DNA of 10,987 bases, taken from the NCBI GenBank assembly GCA_044344255.1, contig JBIJDH010000057.1:1-10987 (forward strand), read 5' to 3'. This DNA is from Myxococcota bacterium. GTDB lineage: Bacteria; Myxococcota_A; UBA796; UBA2385. The notes beneath the pieces were generated by a model that worked only from the letters and a program-made list of their open reading frames with translations, had not been told where the DNA came from and searched no databases. Within the stretch, counting starts at the first letter, position 1. Every line of letters starts with the position of its first letter. A program made the position numbers and the translations under genes. Shown here piece by piece: positions 96 to 10,987 of the stretch.

Positions 96-389
96 TTGCC
101 CCCCGCCGTTCATGCGCCCTATCCCCACGGCGCCCTCGCCTGGATACGTCTCGCCGAGATGAGCCTCCGCCTGCGCCCGCTCGACGCCCGCCTCCAGGCG
201 GAGTGGCCCGAGCTCGCCACCACCCTGCCGGGCGGTCTGGCCGGCGGTCTCGACGGCGCCATCCGTCGGCTGGCCCGGGAGGTGACCGCTATCGACGAGA
301 CCCGTCGCCTGTGGACCGAGCTGTGGTTGCCGGAGCTACGGCACCGCCCCATCCGGGGTGAGATGCCCTCCTGGCCCCCCACTCATTAA
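96..389 (+). CDS. Hypothetical protein, 97 aa
   Basis: TTG start with GGAG at 86-89; G/C-ending codons and protein-like helical composition (Leu/Trp/Glu/Arg). Ends with TAA 35 nt before the convergent ctaA stop. No family recognised. Confidence 0.45.
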   Translation: MPPAVHAPYPHGALAWIRLAEMSLRLRPLDARLQAEWPELATTLPGGLAGGLDGAIRRLAREVTAIDETRRLWTELWLPELRHRPIRGEMPSWPPTH

Positions 390-424: not shown

Positions 425-1459
425 TCAGGACGACTCCGATCCGGCGTCGCGACAGCGGTGCAGCAACCCCACAGCACAACCAAAGAGCAGGACCGCGTTG
501 ACCTGGTGCAGGGAGGCGAGGCTGATCGGCACCCGATGAAGGACGGTGAGCGCGCCGAGGCCGATCTGGAAGAGCACTAGGACACCGAGGCCGATCGCCC
601 ACCGCCGGGCAGGGAGGTCGGTGGTGGATCGGAGGGTGGTAAAACAGAGAGCGATAGCCAGGGCAGCACTACAATAAGCGAGGCTGCGGTGGATGAAGTG
701 TACGGTGAGCGGATCTTCTACGATCCCGATCCCTACCCGCAGCCCATCCGGCACGAGCGCCCCGTTCATCAAGGGAAAGGAGGGGGCGACAAGCCCCGCA
801 TGGAGCCCCGCCATCAAGGCCCCCCAGCCGAGGGTGAGGAAGAGGAGCCCGATGGTGGCGCCGGAGAGGGAACGAAGGCGGGAGGGCAGGCTCGGGGCTG
901 CGCTTCGCTCAAGGTCGCTCTGGGCCTGCCAGAGCAGCAGCCCGAAGAGGGCCACCGCCAACAACAGGTGAGTGGCGAGGCGGTAGGGGCTCACCCGCGG
1001 CACATCCACGAGGCCGCTCTTCACCATCCACCAGCCCACCACGCCCTGGAGCCCGCCAAGAGACAAGATCCCCACCAACTTGAACAGTCGGCGGCCGGCG
1101 ATTCGCCTGCGCAGCGCAAAGTAGAGCAGCGGCAGCCCGAAGATGAGCCCGGCCAGCCTCCCGATGAGGCGATGGGCCCACTCCACGAGGAAGATCTCCT
1201 GAAACTCCCCGAGGCTCATCCCATGGTTGACGTGGGCATACTCGGGGGATGCCTGGTAGAGCGAGAAGGCGCGGTCCCAGGCATCGGCACCGAGGGGCGG
1301 GAGCACCCCCGTCACCACATTCCATTCGGTGATGGACAGCCCGGAGTGGGTGAGGCGGGTGAGCCCGCCCACCACCACCATGATCAACACGGTGAGGGTA
1401 CAGCCGAGGAGCCAGAGCCCAATGGAGCGGTCGCGGAGAGCGGGGGGTGTGGAGTCCAT
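425..1459 (-). CDS. ctaA: Heme A synthase (CtaA/COX15 family, type 2 without the Cys pair), 344 aa
   Basis: Motifs GGLTRLTHSGLSITEW, EWAHRLIGR, VSPYRLATHL, VHFIHR and SLHQ, with about 8 hydrophobic segments. The real start is probably the ATG at 1459 (AGGAG upstream); the 595-aa track ORF is an upstream over-extension. Confidence 0.93.
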   Translation of the reverse strand: MDSTPPALRDRSIGLWLLGCTLTVLIMVVVGGLTRLTHSGLSITEWNVVTGVLPPLGADAWDRAFSLYQASPEYAHVNHGMSLGEFQEIFLVEWAHRLIGRLAGLIFGLPLLYFALRRRIAGRRLFKLVGILSLGGLQGVVGWWMVKSGLVDVPRVSPYRLATHLLLAVALFGLLLWQAQSDLERSAAPSLPSRLRSLSGATIGLLFLTLGWGALMAGLHAGLVAPSFPLMNGALVPDGLRVGIGIVEDPLTVHFIHRSLAYCSAALAIALCFTTLRSTTDLPARRWAIGLGVLVLFQIGLGALTVLHRVPISLASLHQVNAVLLFGCAVGLLHRCRDAGSESS

Positions 1460-1518: not shown

Positions 1519-2586
1519 TCAGGCGCAGGTCGGGTCGGTCGGGAAGGCCCGGTGCGCGGGATCCCAACGCTCCCAAGCCTCCGTCTCCACCGCCTCGGCG
1601 CGCACCTGCCCCCACCAGCCGGTAAAACGCAGCTCGCGGGACAACAGGGCAGATTGGATGCTGGAGAGGCATCGATGGCTGTAGACGGCGAGGCCGGGCT
1701 CCGGGCGCCCGGCGAGGCGCGGATAGACGATGTCGGCGCGGCTTGAGCCCGCACAAAGAAGACCTCGAAGCAGCGCTTCGGGGGCCGCCTGGTGCCGAGC
1801 TCCGACGAGCAGCACCTCGGGGGTGTCCGCGGCCGCGAGCCCGGTGTAGAGCGCGCCGAGCAGGCCCAGCTGTGGCCGGATATCGGTCACCACACCGATC
1901 CCATCCCGCGACGCAGAGAAGGACGCAGAGAAGGACGCAGAGAAGGGTGCGGAGCTGACGACAAGGGCCCGGGCGCCCAGGGCCGCGGCGAAGCGGAGCG
2001 CCACGGCCGCCGCGACCTCCTGTTCCGGTGGACGGCCGGCCGGACAGAGGACGGTCACCTGCCGGGGCGCTTCTGGGGATAGAAAACGGTTGACGATCCA
2101 ATCCGCCACCCGGACAGGCTGGTCGAGAGGTAGGACTGGGAGGTCCGGACCCGAATCGGGGTCGAGCTCCGTGTCGGAGGCCCAGGCGATCGTGTTCTCG
2201 GGCGGCGTCCACCCCTTATCGGAGGGTCCCCCACCTCGGAACACCCGAATCGTGGGGATGCCGGAGCGGCGAAAACCCTCGGCCAGCACGATGTCGGCGC
2301 TGGGGAAGAGCCGCTCCACCGCATGAACCAAAGAGACCTCTCCTTCGAGTCGCTCGAAGAGGGCGAGCCGCTCCGCGGTGAGCAGGGCGACGCTCGAGGC
2401 CCCCGCCTCGCTGAAGCGCCAGGAGTCCTTACCGGGGGTGTCGAGCTGGACCCGGTGGGCATCCGACTTGAGCACCCCTACGCGGAGGCCCCGCGCGCGG
2501 AGCTCTCCGATGAGCGCCACGATGAGGCGGGTCTTTCCGGTGCCCGAGGGGGCAGCGAAGGCCACGACAGGCGGGAGGCGGGCCAT
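1519..2586 (-). CDS. mobB: Molybdopterin-guanine dinucleotide biosynthesis protein MobB fused to a C-terminal MobA-like (NTP transferase fold) domain, 355 aa
   Basis: N-terminal Walker A APSGTGKT, RVGVLKSDAH, DTPGKDSWRF and DIVLAEGFR are MobB hallmarks. C-terminal VVTD..PQLGLLGALYTGL and RPEPGLAVYS resemble MobA. ATG at 2586 is preceded by GGAG. Confidence 0.88.
   Translation of the reverse strand: MARLPPVVAFAAPSGTGKTRLIVALIGELRARGLRVGVLKSDAHRVQLDTPGKDSWRFSEAGASSVALLTAERLALFERLEGEVSLVHAVERLFPSADIVLAEGFRRSGIPTIRVFRGGGPSDKGWTPPENTIAWASDTELDPDSGPDLPVLPLDQPVRVADWIVNRFLSPEAPRQVTVLCPAGRPPEQEVAAAVALRFAAALGARALVVSSAPFSASFSASFSASRDGIGVVTDIRPQLGLLGALYTGLAAADTPEVLLVGARHQAAPEALLRGLLCAGSSRADIVYPRLAGRPEPGLAVYSHRCLSSIQSALLSRELRFTGWWGQVRAEAVETEAWERWDPAHRAFPTDPTCA
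1910..1945. repeat. Perfect 12-bp tandem repeat x3 (GACGCAGAGAAG), encoding FSAS x3 in the MobA-like domain
   Basis: Copies at 1910-1921, 1922-1933 and 1934-1945; in frame. Confidence 0.95.
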
Positions 2587-2617: not shown

Positions 2618-3340
2618 TCAGTGGTGGGGCGCCGGCCCGCGAGGTGGTTGCCGGGAGCGCTCCTCCAGCCCGGGGATGGTGACACAGGCCCCGCAGTTGG
2701 CCACCTCCTCGGCGTCGTCCTGCACAAAGAAGTCTGTCGGGGCGGGGTAGACTGCCTCTATCGTACACTCCTCGGTCACCAGCCTGTCCACCCAGCCGAG
2801 CAACGGTCCGAAGACAGGGTCTTCCACCACCCGGGGGCGGAGGGAGAGGGCCCGGGCGAAACCCCCGAGGTGGTCCTGGAGGAACTTCCGCCTCGCGTCG
2901 GCCACGATCTCGGTGCCAACCGGGTCATCCAGCAGGATGGACTGTTTGTAGAGGAGCAGCGCATAAAACTCCATCTCGATCGCGATGTGGTCGGGCATCT
3001 CCGCGCCGACCTCTTCGGTCAGCGCGAAGCCGAAGGCGTTGTAGAAGCCCACGACATCGGAGAGGTCCTTGCCTTTGGAGAGGCCCCGCATTCGCCCATA
3101 TTCCGTCTCGTAAACGGCCACCCTCGCCTCGCCGCCATCGAAAGCAGCGAGATAACCTGCCCGTAAGGCATCTAAACCCCCTCGAGCGCGGTTGAGAAGG
3201 GGGCGGAGCTCCGGACGCCCCTCCAGCTCCGGCGCCAGCGCCAGGAGGGTCTGAAGAGACTCCGGAGAGGGGAAGCTGGTGGAGATCGCCGCGAGGGTGA
3301 AGTCCCGCGTGCGTTGGGACAGCGCTTCGGCCGGGCTCAT
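2618..3340 (-). CDS. TorD/DmsD-family redox enzyme maturation chaperone (delta subunit), 240 aa
   Basis: VYETEY, LSDVVGFYNAFGF, EMPDHIAIEMEF (E/x-P-D-H motif) and FLQDHLG. Start ATG at 3340 overlaps the gamma-subunit stop (ATGA, 3340-3337), indicating translational coupling. Confidence 0.9.
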   Translation of the reverse strand: MSPAEALSQRTRDFTLAAISTSFPSPESLQTLLALAPELEGRPELRPLLNRARGGLDALRAGYLAAFDGGEARVAVYETEYGRMRGLSKGKDLSDVVGFYNAFGFALTEEVGAEMPDHIAIEMEFYALLLYKQSILLDDPVGTEIVADARRKFLQDHLGGFARALSLRPRVVEDPVFGPLLGWVDRLVTEECTIEAVYPAPTDFFVQDDAEEVANCGACVTIPGLEERSRQPPRGPAPHH

Positions 3341-4233
3341 GGTTTCACCTGAAGCGGGGTCCAGGCCATGACGACGCTCTTTCGGGAGCCCACCTCGCCC
3401 TGGCCCCCCTGCCAGGCCGCGAAGGCCACCGCGTTCTTGCCCCCCGGCACGATGGTGGAGCCGCCGTCGATCCGGAGCGGTCTGCTGATCACCACCGTCC
3501 ATTGTCCATCCTTCCACTCCCCCTTGCCTGTGCTACCATGGCCCGACTGCACGGCTGAGGTGGAGAAACCCTCGGCGATGATCTCGTCCACCCCCGATTT
3601 GGGCGAGGACTGCGGGTTTCCGAGGGCAACGCCGGGGTTGAACATCTCCCGCTCCTCCTTGCTCCCGCCCGGGGCATCATGAAAGTCCATCGCGTACATA
3701 TCCACCGAGGCGTTCGGATAGAGGTCACTCATCGTGGGCTTCCCCTTCTCCGCATCCCGCTGATACTGCGCCCTCCAGTGGAAGATATGGACCGGCTGAC
3801 CCTCCGAGCCCATCATCACAGAGGGGAGGGCCTCTCCGCTCATCGGAAATTCGAGGGCGACCGCATCCGAGAATTGACCGAGCCCCCCAGCATCACTCTT
3901 CTCGGTGTCCTTCCAGCGCAGGCGAAAGGCGATAGACTTTCCGTCGGTGACCGACTGAACGACGATCTTCTCCGTGAGCACCCGTTCGGGCCGCGGGGTG
4001 ATGATCGGCTGGGCGAGGAGGGTGAGCTCCCCCGCGGGGGCCTCCTTCCAGTAAGAGGCGCCGGGGTCGGGCGCGCTCACGTCGGCCTCCACCCGCGCCG
4101 CGATGAGCTCGGTGAGGGGCGGGGCCACGAGCTCCGCCACCTCGGTGCGGATGCCGGGACCCCCCGAGTCGCCGCAGGCGACGAAGACGATGAGCGGGAG
4201 GACCCGCCACTCTGGCGTATGAGACGAATTCAT
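3337..4233 (-). CDS. Heme b-binding gamma subunit (ethylbenzene dehydrogenase gamma/DOMON-like, NxrC-like), possibly a lipoprotein, 298 aa
   Basis: IAFRLRWKD, FSDAVALEFP, PSVMMG (candidate Met ligand), VHIFHWRA, AEGFST, WTVVISRPL and VAFAAWQG...GSRKS (candidate Lys ligand). ATG at 4233 has GGAGG upstream. The N-terminus reads RVLPLIVFVAC. Confidence 0.87.
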   Translation of the reverse strand: MNSSHTPEWRVLPLIVFVACGDSGGPGIRTEVAELVAPPLTELIAARVEADVSAPDPGASYWKEAPAGELTLLAQPIITPRPERVLTEKIVVQSVTDGKSIAFRLRWKDTEKSDAGGLGQFSDAVALEFPMSGEALPSVMMGSEGQPVHIFHWRAQYQRDAEKGKPTMSDLYPNASVDMYAMDFHDAPGGSKEEREMFNPGVALGNPQSSPKSGVDEIIAEGFSTSAVQSGHGSTGKGEWKDGQWTVVISRPLRIDGGSTIVPGGKNAVAFAAWQGGQGEVGSRKSVVMAWTPLQVKP

Positions 4234-4247
4234 GGCTGCTCCTCCGC

Positions 4248-5384
4248 TCAAGGCGTGTTGTTCCGAACCGCGCCGATCTTTTCGTCGTAGGCGGGGCGCT
4301 CGAAGATGCTCTCTGTCACCGGGACGCGCACGATCTCGCTCCCATCGGTGTCGTAGCCGATGGCCATGCCCCCCTTCACCGCAAAGGAGTGCAGGATCCG
4401 CTCGCTGCTGCCGATGAGACAGAGCAGGCCCGCGGCGATGGGATCGGTGTGAATGGCCTTGTACCGCTCGATGGCCTCGTGGACACGCGGGCCGAACATC
4501 TGCTCCAGATAGGCGGGATCTGCATGAATGGGAGGGATATAGTAGATATTGGGCTCGAGGCCGAGCTGGGGGTAATAGGGCAGCGCGATCTGTTTCTCGT
4601 GGACCAGAAAGTCAACAGGGTTGTCTTTCCGCGCGGTCCAGGGCGGGTTGATGAAGCCCATAACCCGGATCTTGCCGATACAGTTCACGACACACTGGGG
4701 CTGGATCCCCTGCTCCACCGCCGGGTAACATCCGATACACTTCTCGCTGGTGCGGGTCCACGGATTGTACATGGACTTCTTGTAGGGACAGGCTCGAACA
4801 CACTCGCCATAACCCTTACACCGGGTCTGGTCGATGAGGACGATACCATCCTCCGGACGTTTATAGATGGCCTTCCGCGGGCAGGCCGCCAGGCAGGCCG
4901 GGTAGGTGCAGTGGGCGCAGGTTCGTGGGAGATAGAAGAACCACTTGTCGTGGGGCAGCTCCGCCATATGGGCACCCCCGTCGAGGTTCCCGCCCGCGCA
5001 GTCATCCTCGCCGATATTGGGGTACATCCAGTCTTCGTCCACCGGGGCGTAATGCAGCACCCGCTCGGTGGGCGGGGCCGACTCGATGATGGTCTTCCCG
5101 AGGTACTCCCCGTTGGCTGACCAGTCCTGTCGGCCGAGCTTCTCCAGGATGCGGAGGTCCCAGGCCATGGGGTAGGCGCCCCAGGGCTTGGTCTCCACAT
5201 TATTCCAGAACATATACTCCTGGCCTTTGCCGCTCGTCCAGGTGGTCTTACAGGCGAGGGTGCAGGTCTGACAGGCGATACACTTGTTGAGGTCGAAGAC
5301 GATCGCCCACTGTTTCTGGGGGCGGCTCTCTTCGTAGGGATAGGCGATAGGCCGCCCAAGGTGCCAGTTCTTGACTTGAGGCAT
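4248..5384 (-). CDS. Fe-S beta subunit of a type II DMSO reductase family enzyme (NxrB/NarH-like), 378 aa
   Basis: Four Cys groups: CIACQTCTLAC, CAHCTYPACLAAC, CKGYGECVRAC (3Fe-4S type) and CIGC...CVVNC. Also GQEYMFWNNVETKP and FFYLPR. RBS AAGGAG. Confidence 0.95.
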   Translation of the reverse strand: MPQVKNWHLGRPIAYPYEESRPQKQWAIVFDLNKCIACQTCTLACKTTWTSGKGQEYMFWNNVETKPWGAYPMAWDLRILEKLGRQDWSANGEYLGKTIIESAPPTERVLHYAPVDEDWMYPNIGEDDCAGGNLDGGAHMAELPHDKWFFYLPRTCAHCTYPACLAACPRKAIYKRPEDGIVLIDQTRCKGYGECVRACPYKKSMYNPWTRTSEKCIGCYPAVEQGIQPQCVVNCIGKIRVMGFINPPWTARKDNPVDFLVHEKQIALPYYPQLGLEPNIYYIPPIHADPAYLEQMFGPRVHEAIERYKAIHTDPIAAGLLCLIGSSERILHSFAVKGGMAIGYDTDGSEIVRVPVTESIFERPAYDEKIGAVRNNTP

Positions 5385-5404: not shown

Positions 5405-8400
5405 TCAGGCGCGCCGCGTGAATCCGCCGGCCAGGTAAATCTTCATCGATTCACTCTCGTAGGTCGGGCGGAGGCCGAGCTCCGCGGGCCGCCAGAGGCC
5501 ATGGCCGCCGATCGCCCCGTCCTCCTTCTTGACGAATTTGACGAAGGCCTCGCGGGGGGCCCCGACCGGGCAGTGAACATCGGCGAGGAAACCTTTCATG
5601 AGCTGCTGACCGAACATATCCTTATGCACCAGGGTCTCGGTCATGAGCGTGGGCTTGAGCCAGGCCCGGGTCGCGCTCTGATGTGAGCCATATCGGTACA
5701 TCGCCTGATAGTTGGTGCCCTCACTCTTGGCGAGGCCATCCGGCCGGGTCTCGTGCCCCTTCACGCTCCCGAATGTGGCACCGTACATATTGTGCCAGGT
5801 GCGGGTGATCCCGCGCGGAGTACCCGGGTAGTAGCGGACACGAAGGAGGAGCCGCGCGATCTTGTACTCCTCTGTGCCTTCCTTCCAGCCTCGGAAGGGG
5901 CGGTCCTCGGGATCGGCGTCTACATAGGCGTAGTCACCCTCTTCGAGGCCGAGCTCTTTCGCGTCCTCGGGGTGCATGTCCACGTAGCCTTCCGTGATCG
6001 AGGGCATCCGTTTGTCGTGCCGATACACATCGCCGAAGGGGCCGAAGAGCACCCCCGTGAAGTCGGTGTCCACCGGGGTGGTGTGGGCGCCGTGGCGGTA
6101 CTTGGGGGTGTGATAGACATGTTTGTACCCGAGGGCCGCGAGGGGGTGCTTCGTCAGCAGCAGCTCAGCGACCGTGTACTGAACATGCCTGCCCTGCCGC
6201 ACCTCGGAGCCCACATCCCCTCTCTTCAGGCCGTACTTCTCGGGGGAGTCGGGGCGGACCATCGGATGGGGAGCGGCGGCGATGGCGTTGGGCTCCCGGT
6301 GGGTGGAGTCGATGGGCTCCCGGTGGACGATCATATTCTCGCCGCTCGCGATGAATTCCGCCTCCGGCCGATAGAACTCGAGCCTCCCGCTGCGGGTGTG
6401 CCAGGGCTGCTCACCCTTCGCCTGCTCATAAGAGGAGATACGCGGGTAGGTGCGCATGTTCACGAGGCAGGGAATGCCGGCCTTCGCCTTCTCGTGCATC
6501 TCGTGGATATCGTATCCCTTGAGCGAGAAGGATCCGTTGACGATGCGCTGCAGATAAGCCTCGACGTTGTTCTCATCGACAAACTTCCACGCCGAAGTAA
6601 AACGCTTATCGGCGAGGTGCGTTCCGATGGCCTTGCTCACCCCCGCGATGATCTCGATGTCCGCCTTGGTATCAAAGACCCTGCGAATGGGCGACTTCGG
6701 AAAGATCTGCACAAAGGGGTTGGTGCAGCTCGCCGTCATGTCGATGTGACGGAACTCAGCCCAGGAGTCGGCGGCGAAGACGATGTCGGAGTACTCGCAG
6801 GAGGCCGTCCACCACCAGTCGGCGAAGGCGATCATCTCGATACGAGGCAACGTGTTGTGAACCACATCATAATGCCACTTCACATTGCCGATCACCGAGT
6901 TGCTGTTGTTCAGCCACATGGCCTTGGTGGGCACGGGCATATGGCCCTTGCCCGTAAGGAGGGCATTACCCACGCGGAGCGGCCGGTCGCCGTTGTTGTA
7001 ATAATGGAGCGACTCATAGTGGGTGTACTTCTTGACCTTCACCTTCGCTTTGGGGTCGAGCTCGAGGTTGAAGGGGTCTTCTGCGATAAAGGTGGGCATT
7101 CCGCCGAAGATCGCGGCCCGATAGTTACCCGCGTAGCTCCCCACATTGCCACCGGGGAAGCCGATATTTCGGGTGAGCGCCGCCACCAGCAGGATGGCGC
7201 GGTCTTTCAGGTCGGCGTTGAAGAACTGGTTCGGGCCCATGCCCGTGGCGAAGATGGTCTTCTCCGGGTTCGCCGCGATCATTCTTGCGAGGGAGACCAC
7301 TGCCGTGGCCGGCGCCGACGTGATGCCCGAGACCTGCTCCGGCGTCATGTTGGTGTCGAGGTACTCCTTCAACAGCGAGAAGTGGCTGCGCACCTCCACC
7401 TCGTTGCCATCCACGAGCTTGACCTTCGTATTGGCGAGGAGGTCGATGTTGAGGCCCCTCCCCCGCGGGCCGACATGGTCTCGGGTGACCGCCACGGGTT
7501 TGCCGGAGGGGTCGAGGATGACGAAGGCGCCCATGTCACCGAGCATCCCCTCGGGGACGATCTGCTGCTGATGGCCGATCGCCGGCGCAGCCTTCTCGCC
7601 CTTCGCGAGCAGGGTCGCTCCCCCGAGGCCCTTACCCGCGGCGGGGGCCGCGAGCCCGATGTCTTCGGGGCGCAGGGGCTGGAGCGTGTCGAGGCGGATG
7701 AGGAAGGGGAGGTCTGTGTTCGTCTTGACCCAGACATCGTCATAGAGCTTCTCGGCGAGGATGACCTGGGCCAGGCCGAGGGCGAAGGCGGGGTCTGTCC
7801 CCGGCCGAATGACGATCACCTCGTCACACTTACTCGCCGTGGCGCTGTACTCCACGGTCACCGCGATGACCTTCGTCCCCTTGATCCGCGCCTCGGTCAG
7901 CCAGTGGCTGTCGGGCATCTTGGTGGTGATCCAGTTCATGCCCCAGACGATGGCGACGTTACTGTGCTCTACGCTGAAGAGGTCAAAGTCATTGGTCTGC
8001 GAGCCCGTGACCATCGGGTGGCCCGGGGGCAGGTCGGTGTGCCAGGAGTAGCTGTCCCAGCCCCGGGCACCCACCGCCTTGTCCGGCCCGACGCCGCGAA
8101 TGGCGTCATCGGCGAGGGCGAGGAGGTTGGCGAATCGATACAGTCCGAAGATCCGGGTCGCCCCGAGGAAGGCCATCCCGCCACGAATCTTGACGGTCTG
8201 GGTGCCGGCCCCCTCCATCGCCTCGATCATCGCCTCGTCATAGTCCTGCGCCTTGAGCAGCGCCGCGCCCTGCTCTCCCGAGTAGGTGGTCGAGATGTTG
8301 AGGAGCCCGCGGGCGGCGTAGTCATAGGCCTCGTCCCACTCCACCCGCACCCAGCTGTCTTTCCCGCGTTGGAAGTATTTCTCGTCGCCTCGTCCGGTGG

Positions 8401-8860
8401 CGGGGTCGCGGGGGAAGCCTGCGTCTGCCCACTCCTTCCACCCCTTTCGAATCATCGGCGACTTCACCCGCCGGTCGCCATAGATCCGGCGGACGAGCGC
8501 CAGGCCCTTCTGGCAGAGGCGCGGGTCCCAGCGATGCGAGGCGGTGTTTCCGTAGAGGTCGGTCGCCTTTCCATACCCATGGGTGGGGCCGATACGCACG
8601 ATGATCCCGTTCTTCACATAGGCCTTGAGCAGGCAGTTGTGGGTGTCATTCGGCGCACAGAGGAAGACGAAGCTGTAGTCATGGGCGAAGATATTGCGGT
8701 AGGCCCGCTCCCAGTCCCGCTCCGGGTAGAAGCTCAACGGATTGTCGACTCGGGTGGGTGCGAGGTACCGAATCGGGGTCGCCGAGGCCACCCCTGCGAC
8801 GGTGATGCCGAGGACGAGCTGAAGGAAGCCGCGTCGGGTATTGGGGCTTGGGTGGGTCAC
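5405..8860 (-). CDS. Tat-exported molybdopterin (Mo-bisPGD) catalytic alpha subunit, nitrite oxidoreductase/nitrate reductase-like (NxrA/NarG-like), 1151 aa
   Basis: GTG start with AGGAG RBS; twin-arginine signal TRRGFL...ASA; FS0 motif [10 protein letters not shown]39-[12 protein letters not shown] carrying the Asp Mo ligand of type II enzymes; [37 protein letters not shown]. Confidence 0.95.
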
Positions 8861-8902: not shown

Positions 8903-9694
8903 TCAGTGGGTGTCGAGGACGGCGCGCGGACTGGCGTCGTAGACGACGAGGCCGGGGATCAGCCGCTCGATGGTGCGGACGAGGGAGTGGTTCAGGTCGA
9001 GGCCGCAGGCCGGCCCGGGCTGGTGGAGCTGGAGGTGAAGGGCCCCTTCCATGAGGCCGAGGTACTCCACCGTCGCCCCCGGGGCGATTCGCCCCATCTT
9101 CTCTGCGGCTTCTACAAGTGGGGCCTGCATCGACTCCGGGATGGGCTGGTACCGCGCCTCGTTCTGCAGCTCGACATGCAGGAGGTCGACACAGCGGGTC
9201 GAGCCGCCTTCTGGGCTCTCGACTCGGCTGTAATATACCGCCGTCGCGAGGCCCGATGTGAGGCCATGCAGGGCCTCCCGCCAGTAGGAGCACCGGGGCG
9301 ATGCGCAGGGGAGGCGGTCGGTCCGGCTCTCCCGGGCCGCGGCATCTCGGTGGAAGCTCCCCTGGGTGCAGGGTGGGCTGAGGAAAGGCAACAGCTGGCT
9401 GAGATCCGGAAGCGTGAGATCAACACGATGAAACCTACGAAAGCCGAGGCCGAGCGTGTGGCTGTTGTCGAAGACACGACGCAGCACCGCGGCCGGATCT
9501 GCCGCGGTGGCGGCGGCCAGAAGCTCTCCCTCCGGGGCGTCGAGCGGGTACTCGGGGACGACGGTGCGGAGCGCCGCCCGCCGGGCTGCGGTCCAGCGTC
9601 TGTCAAGCTCTCCCGCCTGCATCTGCAGGTAAGCGCCGATCGCCGGCTCCGGTGTTGGGGAGGTGGGAGGGTCGGTCTGGCTGTGGGAATTCAT
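8903..9694 (-). CDS. Hypothetical Cys-containing protein, 263 aa; central V4R/metal-binding-like region and NifU-C-like C-terminus (tentative)
   Basis: ATG with a good AAGGAG RBS; co-oriented and 42 nt upstream of the alpha gene; five Cys. Domain resemblance is by eye only. Confidence 0.75.
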   Translation of the reverse strand: MNSHSQTDPPTSPTPEPAIGAYLQMQAGELDRRWTAARRAALRTVVPEYPLDAPEGELLAAATAADPAAVLRRVFDNSHTLGLGFRRFHRVDLTLPDLSQLLPFLSPPCTQGSFHRDAAARESRTDRLPCASPRCSYWREALHGLTSGLATAVYYSRVESPEGGSTRCVDLLHVELQNEARYQPIPESMQAPLVEAAEKMGRIAPGATVEYLGLMEGALHLQLHQPGPACGLDLNHSLVRTIERLIPGLVVYDASPRAVLDTH

Positions 9695-9854
9695 CCCTGC
9701 GCTCCTTGTGGCGGGGACGACTGCAAGAACGGGGCCAGGGCCTCCCCCAGGGGCCCGCGGCGGCGCCCAAAGACCGACGGAGAGAGCGGACGCTCCCTTT
9801 CAGCGGATGTCGGACTCGGTTGTCATGGCGGGGAGCGGGAGAAGGCACAGGTGT

Positions 9855-10014: not shown

Positions 10015-10701
10015 GTGACCACCCTCGCCCGCCAGACCCCTCCCCTGAGCCCCGCCCTCTCCCAAGCGCTCGCCCGCCGGGAGCTGGACTTTGACGACAA
10101 CACCGCCCCCTGGCTGGTGGGCGCCCCGGAGCTCGAGCCTGGGCCCCGCCTCCGAGGCAACGAGAAGGCCGATGTGGTCATCATCGGCGGCGGCTTCACC
10201 GGCCTCTCTACCGCCTTGAACCTGATCATCCGGCACCCGAACCTCCGCATCGTCCTCTTGGAGGCCCGCCGGGTGGCGAATGGGGCCAGCGGCCGGAACG
10301 GCGGGCAGATGTTGAACTGGGTCAACGGGGTAGACACCACCGATGAGCCGCTCACGAAGCGGGTCTTCGACCTCACCCGGAGCGGCATCGACGACGTCGT
10401 CTCCCTCATCCGCGACAATGGTCTCCGTGTGCGCCACGCCCGCGACGGGGCCCTGGAGGTGCAGTGCAGCGCGGAGGGCGCCGAGCACGCCCAGGAGAAG
10501 GCCGAAAGAATGGCCCGTTGGGGCATCCCGCTGCGCTACATCCAGGGGGCCGAGCTCAAGGCCACCCTGCAGATGACCGGCGCCCGGGGCGCGCTCCTCG
10601 ACCCCACCGCCGGCCAGCTCAACGGCGTGGACTACCTCCGGGAGCTGGCTCGCCTGCTCGTCGCGCGGGGGGTGGTCATTCATGAGGACAGCCCGGTCCT
10701 C
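10015..10701 (+). pseudogene. N-terminal ~229 codons of an FAD-dependent oxidoreductase (DadA/PuuB gamma-glutamylputrescine oxidase-like), apparently truncated or fused
   Basis: Manual translation gives ADVVIIGGGFTGLSTA (Rossmann GxGxxG), IVLLEA, GASGRNGG, DPTAGQLN and GVVIHEDSPVL. In-frame TAA at 10003-10005 bounds the start. Absent from the ORF track because the frame has no stop before the window end. Confidence 0.75.
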
Positions 10702-10987
10702 TATGTGCGTGGGAAGGAGGGCGGTGTCCGGTTTCGGCCGGCACGAGCTCACCCCTCCGATGTGGAGGCGCTGATCGTGGCGATCGCGACAGCCTGCGAA
10801 GCGTGGCTGGCACGACAGGGCCATGGGCCAGAGGACGCGGCGGAAGAGGCCGACGACGAAGGGATGCGCCTCTTCCAGGCCGCCGCTGTGGCGGGGTACT
10901 CCGTGGTGAGAGGGGCGCCGACGAGGGTGGCGCGCCGTGTGCAGCGCATCGGGGGGAGGGAGCGGGAGCTCCCGCCGCTCTGCGCTT
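10702..10987 (+). mobile_element. Internal fragment of an IS91-family (Y2 rolling-circle) transposase-like sequence, in frame with the oxidoreductase; runs off the window
   Basis: Translation YVRGKEGGVRFRPARAHPSDVEALIVAIATACEAWLARQGHG...LFQAAAVAG...ARRVQRIGGRERELPPLCA resembles the segment between the HUH/DGV(Y/F) motif and the GF(S/N)LHA motif of IS91-like transposases. Recognised from memory. Confidence 0.62.

Follow-up and report, generated by a model that had tools for sequence, protein, structure and literature searches.

A putative accessory gene at the head of a molybdoenzyme operon

The window, by which we mean the whole 10,987-nt stretch of DNA analysed here, is the entire contig C71 of genome G000. 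Its first minus-strand gene (8903..9694, ATG start) encodes P0001, a 263-aa putative accessory protein predicted to combine a four-Cys domain of the V4R/H-NOX clan with a degenerate NifU-C domain. A Shine–Dalgarno-like AAGGAG (9702..9707, minus strand) lies 7 nt 5′ of the ATG, and the GC content at codon positions 1, 2 and 3 (0.73, 0.52 and 0.82) is gene-like. We conclude that the ORF is a real gene, and both the strong ribosome-binding site and the first place in the cluster that a first-pass annotation had read from the letters are confirmed. No sigma-70 consensus promoter was found between positions 8700 and 10100 of the window, and the DAO family gene upstream (10015+) is divergent. In RNA libraries, available as assembled contigs and without a silent control, one run (X1) contained contigs identical to the alpha, beta and gamma genes described below, and another (X4) contained a single 206-nt contig inside the P0001 ORF, with 9 differences.

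The 3′ end of the P0001 gene is 42 nt ahead of the GTG start of the alpha gene at 8860. Alpha (5405..8860, minus strand) is a molybdoenzyme subunit that belongs to the DMSO reductase family, type II, NXR/NAR-like, with a twin-arginine N-terminus and the FS0 motif CAPNDTHNC; among solved structures, its best match is Kuenenia NXR-A (7b04, E = 4e-268). On the same strand follow genes for the beta (Fe–S) subunit (4248..5384; TIGR03478 at E = 5e-78, a match below cut-off), the gamma subunit (heme b, EB_dh; 3337..4233), a TorD/NarJ-type chaperone (delta; 2618..3340), a MobB–MobA-like fusion for Mo-bisPGD synthesis (1519..2586) and heme A synthase (CtaA/COX15; 425..1459, start approximate). The heme A synthase gene adjoins the 3′ end of the operon in the window and had no tblastn match in the related loci examined. 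The chaperone ends in a Cys-bearing C-terminal tail (window 2618-2700), which reads CGAC here and CGGC, CGDC, CGEC, CC or a single C in relatives; such tails also occur in operons that lack the P0001 gene and are therefore not specific to it.

P0001 contains no hydrophobic segment (maximum 19-residue Kyte–Doolittle mean of 0.89). Among 144 aligned family members, the Kyte–Doolittle maximum exceeds 1.6 in just one, and none has a twin-arginine motif within the first 35 residues. The earlier reading that P0001 has no evident signal peptide or transmembrane helix is confirmed.

Both ends of the window (10701-10987 and 1-127) are pieces of one repeat element of ~1 kb that is found on many contigs. 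Copies on C44, C62, C67 and C72 match Y2_Tnp (IS91-like, PF04986), and the element truncates the DAO-family gene at about position 10700. The contig ends may be assembly breaks or may mark a mobile cassette. Contig C5 of the same genome carries ~80% identical paralogues of both operon flanks, ~7.2 kb apart and without molybdoenzyme genes (window 127-314 and 10066-10701 paired with C5 30951-31138 and 38385-39020), which suggests a duplicated region carrying different cargo.

An unnamed family with four near-invariant cysteines

A search of a representative set with a profile built from 10 close homologues placed 246 clusters at 50% identity in the P0001 family (E ≤ 0.001), 150 of which were among the matches listed. 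We aligned 144 of 158 proteins, the 14 outside 220–320 aa being left out. The family has two branches, of 74 and 70 members, and a Bdellovibrionota genome is the source of one named second-branch protein.

The five Cys of P0001 (109, 130, 135, 168 and 230) are all present in the sequence contexts quoted by the first-pass annotation. Four of them are near-invariant across the 144 members: C109 (9370-9368) in 142, C130 (9307-9305) in 144, C135 (9292-9290) in 143 and C168 (9193-9191) in 144. The fifth, C230 (9007-9005), is variable; its loop (residues 222–236) holds one Cys in 89 members, none in 47 and a CxxC in 3. The weight that had been placed on the cysteines is thus justified for four; the fifth is not essential. 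Beyond the Cys, no member varies at G144, G148, R157 or G213, and D170 is kept in 143 and E140 in 139 of the 144 members; all of these except G213 lie in the N-terminal domain.

Neither Pfam nor NCBIfam gave a match for P0001, and no Pfam family was matched by more than one of the 144 members. There was no match to PHROGs (three members queried) or, by tblastn, to plasmid sequences, and the family profile found only a chance match among PDB sequences (E = 2.2). Longer fused forms were absent from 7999 candidates, which is weak evidence. The literature covered (titles and abstract starts, mostly of non-subscription papers) held nothing that seemed to describe the family or its architecture, in line with the original impression that it belongs to no described family.

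A predicted N-terminal fold of the V4R/H-NOX type

The AlphaFold2 model of P0001 (pLDDT 92.7, pTM 0.86) gives the N-terminal domain (about residues 19–180; 9155..9640, minus strand) a fold of the V4R/H-NOX/TRAPP/ATC-hydrolase type. Structure matches to this domain included Bet3–TPC6 (2cfh; Z = 7.3, rmsd 4.2, 120 aligned), DmpR (6iy8; Z = 7.1, rmsd 4.3, 136 aligned), PoxR (Z = 6.4), H-NOX (Z = 6.3) and V4R (2oso; Z = 5.2, rmsd 4.5, 115 aligned), and V4R, H-NOX and PoxR filled the top rows in Foldseek (E from 7.5e-3 to 1e-2). The structure matches of P0001 are moderate, none reaching Z = 8 or a Foldseek E of 0.001. An Atlas structure search returned ATC-hydrolase/V4R clusters (TM 0.49/0.60 to an ATC_hydrolase cluster); the Atlas feature search returned one match at 0.75, below lead level, and none for the C-terminal domain.

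Profile comparisons gave a fainter signal. The match to V4R was weak (P = 0.003, probability 9.9), the comparison of ATC with V4R itself giving P = 0.0016, and hhalign against ATC members gave P = 0.0085 with the Cys out of register. At E ≤ 0.1, PF02830 (V4R) matched 0 of 144 members, and P0001 and the members had no Pfam match to V4R, MetOD1 (PF18546), ATC_hydrolase (PF14196) or HNOB. Homology to SufR was not significant (full-profile E = 0.31; C-domain P = 0.11), and scans with Pfam and NCBIfam found no HTH in the family. We assign the N-terminal domain to the V4R/H-NOX/TRAPP clan with moderate confidence on the basis of the model; the resemblance to V4R first noticed in the cysteine pattern is upheld by the clan fold in Foldseek and the structure matches.

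In the V4R profile alignment, C135 and C168 fall on V4R Cys, and R157 and S160 fall on the Glu and the second-last Cys of V4R. R157 is unvaried in all 144 members, and the S160 column holds 126 Ser and 9 Cys. We take the C...E-x2-C...C of V4R to be its Zn ligands; judged by this alignment, the P0001 family retains just half of them. From the fold, the four conserved Cys would be expected to meet as one site.

A fold of this clan could also serve a second chaperone or small-ligand carrier with structural Zn, in which a pocket would take up a Mo-bisPGD intermediate, heme, lipid or Tat signal peptide and the Cys would only stabilize the fold. Ligand pockets are described for V4R, H-NOX and Bet3 folds (PMC13254051), Zn sites are reported as common in the clan (PMC7108781, PMC12343034), and the conserved E140, R157, D170, R33 and R38 suggest a binding surface. 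However, a TorD-type chaperone is already present in the operon at all 26 loci checked, and the family has no invariant His that could act as an H-NOX-type heme ligand, the best column (H158) being His in 112 of 144 members and Val in P0001. We consider such a carrier quite unlikely.

A NifU-like C-terminal domain without CxxC

The C-terminal domain (about residues 183–259; 8918..9148, minus strand) resembles NifU-C (Nfu). Comparison with NifU-C by hhalign gave a probability of 96.3 and E = 1.6e-9 over 67 columns, against E = 0.2 for the N-terminal domain as a control, and the modelled domain matched the rice NifU-like structure 1th5 (Z = 7.2, rmsd 2.3 Å, 67 residues). Cation-efflux C-domains came close behind (Z = 6.7), and Atlas TM scores for the domain were 0.62–0.72. 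The family profile weakly picked up a true Nfu protein too; at E = 0.1, none of the 144 members matched PF01106 (NifU-C). The likeness to the NifU C-terminal domain, and the missing CxxC, had both been noted at first sight and both hold. On profile and model evidence we conclude that this is a NifU-C homologue that has lost its CxxC, and as judged from the sequence it is a NifU-like domain without the canonical way of binding a cluster. A CxxC-less, redox-inactive second NFU domain has been described in plastid NFU1–3 (PMC5890173).

The gene marks one subclade of alpha subunits

At genome loci found by pattern scan, alpha lies directly downstream of the P0001 homologue in 6 of 6. We sampled the phylum evenly (301 genomes, alphas counted at E ≤ 1e-100) and found full-length family members in 6 genomes, G000 included, and alphas in 25. 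The 6 carriers are exactly the genomes whose alpha is at least 69% identical to that of the window. The other 19 alpha genomes (alpha ≤60%) had no family match genome-wide, nor was the family found in their 1.5-kb alpha flanks (three flanks being shorter than 410 nt) or in 11 extended loci.

Alpha is directly downstream at 10 of 10 distinct non-self genome loci, with G212, a duplicate of L002, counted once. Metagenome loci were selected on the P0001-type gene and include two duplicate pairs (L042/L043 and L061/L064); 16 of 24 have alpha within ~520 nt downstream, of the other 8, one is spurious and the sequence of 7 stops within 526 nt. The spurious locus (L065; E = 6e-4, inside another gene) was set aside, as was L014, a weak C-domain match in a transglutaminase/TPR protein. 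The suspected co-occurrence with this alpha clade is therefore found in genomes and metagenomes alike, and is confined to one alpha subclade.

A quick maximum-likelihood analysis of 37 alphas sets all 19 gene-bearing ones to the same side of a branch whose SH-aLRT is 100. Such a tree would fit one origin of the gene and its later retention; the linked loci therefore do not count as independent events. We conclude that, within the periplasmic NXR/NAR lineage, the P0001 gene cleanly marks a single subclade. Sister operons without the gene would suit a passenger whose function is unrelated to the molybdoenzyme, but we saw no genuine unlinked copy in hosts of 28% to 69% GC and down to ~25% protein identity, which makes a passenger extremely improbable.

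The FS0 motif CAPNDTHNC is present in all 19 alphas with the gene and in 8 alphas without an adjoining gene (L022–L028, L040). Kuenenia NXR-A carries the related motif CxPNDTHxC, and its FS0 is reported to be 3Cys/Asp-ligated (PMC8387239). Because gene-less alphas share the motif, the P0001 gene is not tied to Asp ligation and encodes no general factor for that cluster, and the suggestion of a dedicated factor for the Asp-ligated FS0 has to be abandoned. We also rejected displacement by Mrp/ApbC: PF10609 is found in 25 of 25 alpha genomes, never on the alpha contig, and with no complementary pattern.

Neighbouring genes, upstream boxes and host

In the second branch, the majority of metagenome loci have an ORF of 105–143 aa between the P0001 homologue and alpha (14 aligned). 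Its products (L042:4150-4527; equivalents in L043–L049, L051–L054, L056, L057, L059 and L063) form an unnamed small protein family that begins with RRxFF. The model (pLDDT 79.6) has a Rieske fold (Z = 10.6, rmsd 2.1 Å over 70 residues to 9rk4), and the Cys/His cluster ligands of Rieske proteins are absent. The ORF is shortened to 72 aa in L050, absent from L058 and L062, and without a match in G000. In L067 (681-4218), an operon without the P0001 gene, several Rieske/cytochrome b-like membrane ORFs, recognized by eye, lie directly upstream of alpha.

The palindrome TGAY-N4-RTCA, presumably an FNR-like box, occurs within 400 nt upstream at 12 of 26 loci, where mononucleotide shuffles predict 0.53; this core is a relaxed form, adopted after the strict TTGAY-N4-RTCAA box proved not generally enriched. 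It is absent upstream in the window. A Crp/Fnr gene and NnrS are divergent from the operon in L042/L043, L045 and L048, and neighbours picked by hand include Crp/Fnr with NnrS, RIC, NosZ, MoaA, MoeA, HiPIP, cytochrome c and an alginate-export-type porin. The porin, an outer-membrane protein that is possibly an anion channel, is next to the operon in L078 (9348-10847) and L005 (6394-8010). The neighbours would point to low-oxygen nitrate respiration over lithotrophic nitrite oxidation.

Elsewhere in G000, on contig C29 (~160900-174000), NirK, a NapA-like gene (916-aa frame), an Fe–S beta-like gene and NosZ together form a denitrification island apart from the P0001 operon. The genome (95% complete) has no RuBisCO and no NarG above cut-off. 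The host is probably a heterotrophic denitrifier, judging from its gene content. Contig C54 (29258-31123) has a molybdoenzyme match that contains an in-frame TGA and is possibly a selenocysteine formate dehydrogenase.

The regulatory surroundings bear on whether P0001 is a stand-alone sensor of redox state, NO or O2, with a labile [4Fe–4S] or Zn-thiolate site whose state the NifU-like domain would pass on to a partner (a regulator, a chaperone or an enzyme) and so adjust the complex's synthesis or export. The nearest folds of the N-terminal domain are sensor domains, H-NOX is reported to sense redox state through a Zn-thiolate site (PMC7108781), and the divergent Crp/Fnr and NnrS genes and the FNR-like core boxes would fit. 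An unforced alignment with a SufR-like C-domain also sets C130, C135, R157 and C168 collinear with three Cys and an Arg over 105 columns (P = 0.11, not significant, from an 11-sequence profile). However, P0001 has no DNA-binding or kinase domain, the lack of fused forms also speaking weakly against a sensor; no cognate output gene travels along with it, Crp/Fnr being adjacent in just 3 distinct loci examined; and the box implies a separate regulator and is missing from the window. To our knowledge, NifU-derived domains do not act as sensor outputs. We hold a stand-alone sensor to be doubtful, although it is the main rival of the reading given in the next section.

MoaA adjoins the operon in L005, L048, L078 and L079. 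Together with the all-Cys site, this would suit a cytoplasmic electron-transfer or redox-poising partner, one that keeps apo-enzyme Cys reduced or feeds cofactor synthesis (for example, MoaA) and donates no cluster; electron transfer is also given as the favoured role for HucE/HhyE (PMC6883350). But the enzyme is exported and P0001 has no export signal, the ligands of the Rieske-fold partner are gone, and the loci examined contain no linked reductase, which together make a redox partner unlikely.

A proposed role in Fe–S maturation or repair

The reading that we prefer, and on which we judge the case to be evenly poised, is that P0001 is a cytoplasmic Fe–S-binding maturation or repair factor of the periplasmic NXR/NAR-type enzyme, comparable to NapF or HucE. 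Soluble and without an export signal, P0001 would stay in the cytoplasm; alpha carries a twin-arginine signal, so any direct action on it would precede export. The four conserved Cys would hold a [4Fe–4S] cluster, probably in preference to Zn. The ligand-less NifU-like domain probably serves to dock the apo-enzyme, the chaperone or general Fe–S carriers. The client would be the alpha–beta complex, with the Fe–S centres of the enzyme loaded or repaired ahead of Tat export, and the operon would work mainly under low oxygen.

The near-invariant Cys, the [4Fe–4S] precedents in this fold, the predicted Fe–S-carrier ancestry of the C-terminal domain and the linkage to alpha speak for an Fe–S role, as does the loss of half of V4R's presumed Zn ligands. 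Of the precedents, D27 has a V4R/H-NOX-type fold and is reported to bind [4Fe–4S] through four Cys (PMC13254051), and ArnR is reported to do so through three Cys of a TRAPPC3-like domain (PMC12343034). HucE, a NifU plus Rieske protein, is described as required for hydrogenase activity (PMC6883350), and the Rieske-fold gene inserted in the second branch resembles this pairing. Also in favour, the neighbours include MoaA, MoeA, MobBA and RIC-type Fe–S repair proteins. Against it, sister alphas mature without the gene, 19 of 25 alpha genomes having yielded no copy, and the CxxC of the NifU-like domain is lost, 3 of 144 members keeping it and 47 having no Cys there at all. The host has its own Nfu (two matches) and Mrp/ApbC, and the characterized relatives of the fold are mostly sensors (PoxR/DmpR, H-NOX, ArnR). 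A four-Cys site in a V4R-type fold would suit a stable cofactor or sensor site more than a labile carrier site.

Sensor and carrier could also be united in one protein, in which Fe–S loading or repair would be gated by O2 or NO: a V4R/H-NOX-fold, four-Cys holder of a [4Fe–4S] cluster joined to a ligand-less Nfu dock and, in one branch, to a ligand-less Rieske-fold partner. We offer this gated factor tentatively, as a possibility. If it were true, P0001 would represent a new class of Fe–S delivery factor and an undescribed accessory system of a widespread, uncharacterized periplasmic NXR/NAR subclade in Myxococcota and Bdellovibrionota-like bacteria.

As an Fe–S maturation or repair factor, P0001 would join ArnR and D27 as another case in which the V4R/H-NOX fold is put to Fe–S use. 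Fe–S delivery to individual molybdoenzymes is described as poorly resolved; few candidates are specific to one enzyme, and NapF, which is among them, has a debated function (PMC10609526). Functional data are sparse for the periplasmic NXR/NAR lineage (PMC6050957), of which the P0001 gene marks one subclade. Because P0001 is small and soluble, has four defined Cys and comes with an obvious candidate client, the matter of Fe–S delivery is experimentally tractable.

Comparison with known systems

Operons of the Nitrotoga/Hydrogenobacter type (nxrABCD) share with the window the alpha–beta–gamma–chaperone order, a Tat signal on alpha and the Mo-site residues Y-4x-D-11x-Q (PMC6050957). They differ in that main-text passages mention no P0001-type upstream gene, although supplementary gene tables, such as Nitrotoga Table S4, could. 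Downstream of Nitrotoga nxr, a gene for an NBP35-like Fe–S carrier and one for a 70-aa protein have been reported (10.1101/317552), the former being, like NapF and HucE/HhyE, a precedent for an Fe–S accessory gene that goes with one enzyme.

With the V4R/H-NOX/ATC-hydrolase/MetOD1 clan, P0001 shares the predicted fold, the placement of C135 and C168 on V4R Cys and, likely, a Cys-ligated metal site. It differs in having R157 and S160 in place of E..C, in the extra C109 and C130, and in lacking HTH, AAA+ and REC domains. MetOD1 is described as a three-Cys V4R/ATC-like domain (PMC5847659). Some H-NOX proteins are reported to carry Zn (PMC7108781). The [4Fe–4S] sensor-regulators of the SufR/ArnR type have an N-terminal winged HTH, whereas P0001 has no HTH match.

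The C-terminal domain is, by profile and model, homologous to the Nfu/NifU-C carriers (PF01106), from which it differs in that CxxC occurs in just 3 of 144 members and none matches PF01106. HucE/HhyE of the group 2a and 1h hydrogenases likewise carry a NifU-like domain with a second metal-binding domain and are encoded with a respiratory metalloenzyme (PMC6883350). HucE is described as pairing NifU with Rieske (PMC6883350), and the second branch here pairs the NifU-like protein with a Rieske-fold gene. HucE/HhyE keep CxxC and their cluster motifs, however, whereas here the NifU and Rieske modules are ligand-less and the Cys reside in the V4R-clan domain.

NapF is likewise a cytoplasmic, Cys-rich accessory protein whose gene stands in an operon for a nitrate-converting molybdoenzyme exported by Tat, with a patchy presence and a proposed role in Fe–S maturation (PMC10609526). 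It has four tetra-Cys ferredoxin motifs, whereas P0001 has no Fer4 match, a Cys spacing of 109/130/135/168 and an unrelated fold. NapF is thus an analogue of P0001, not a homologue, and P0001 belongs to an unnamed family in which a new domain combination would fill a known kind of role.
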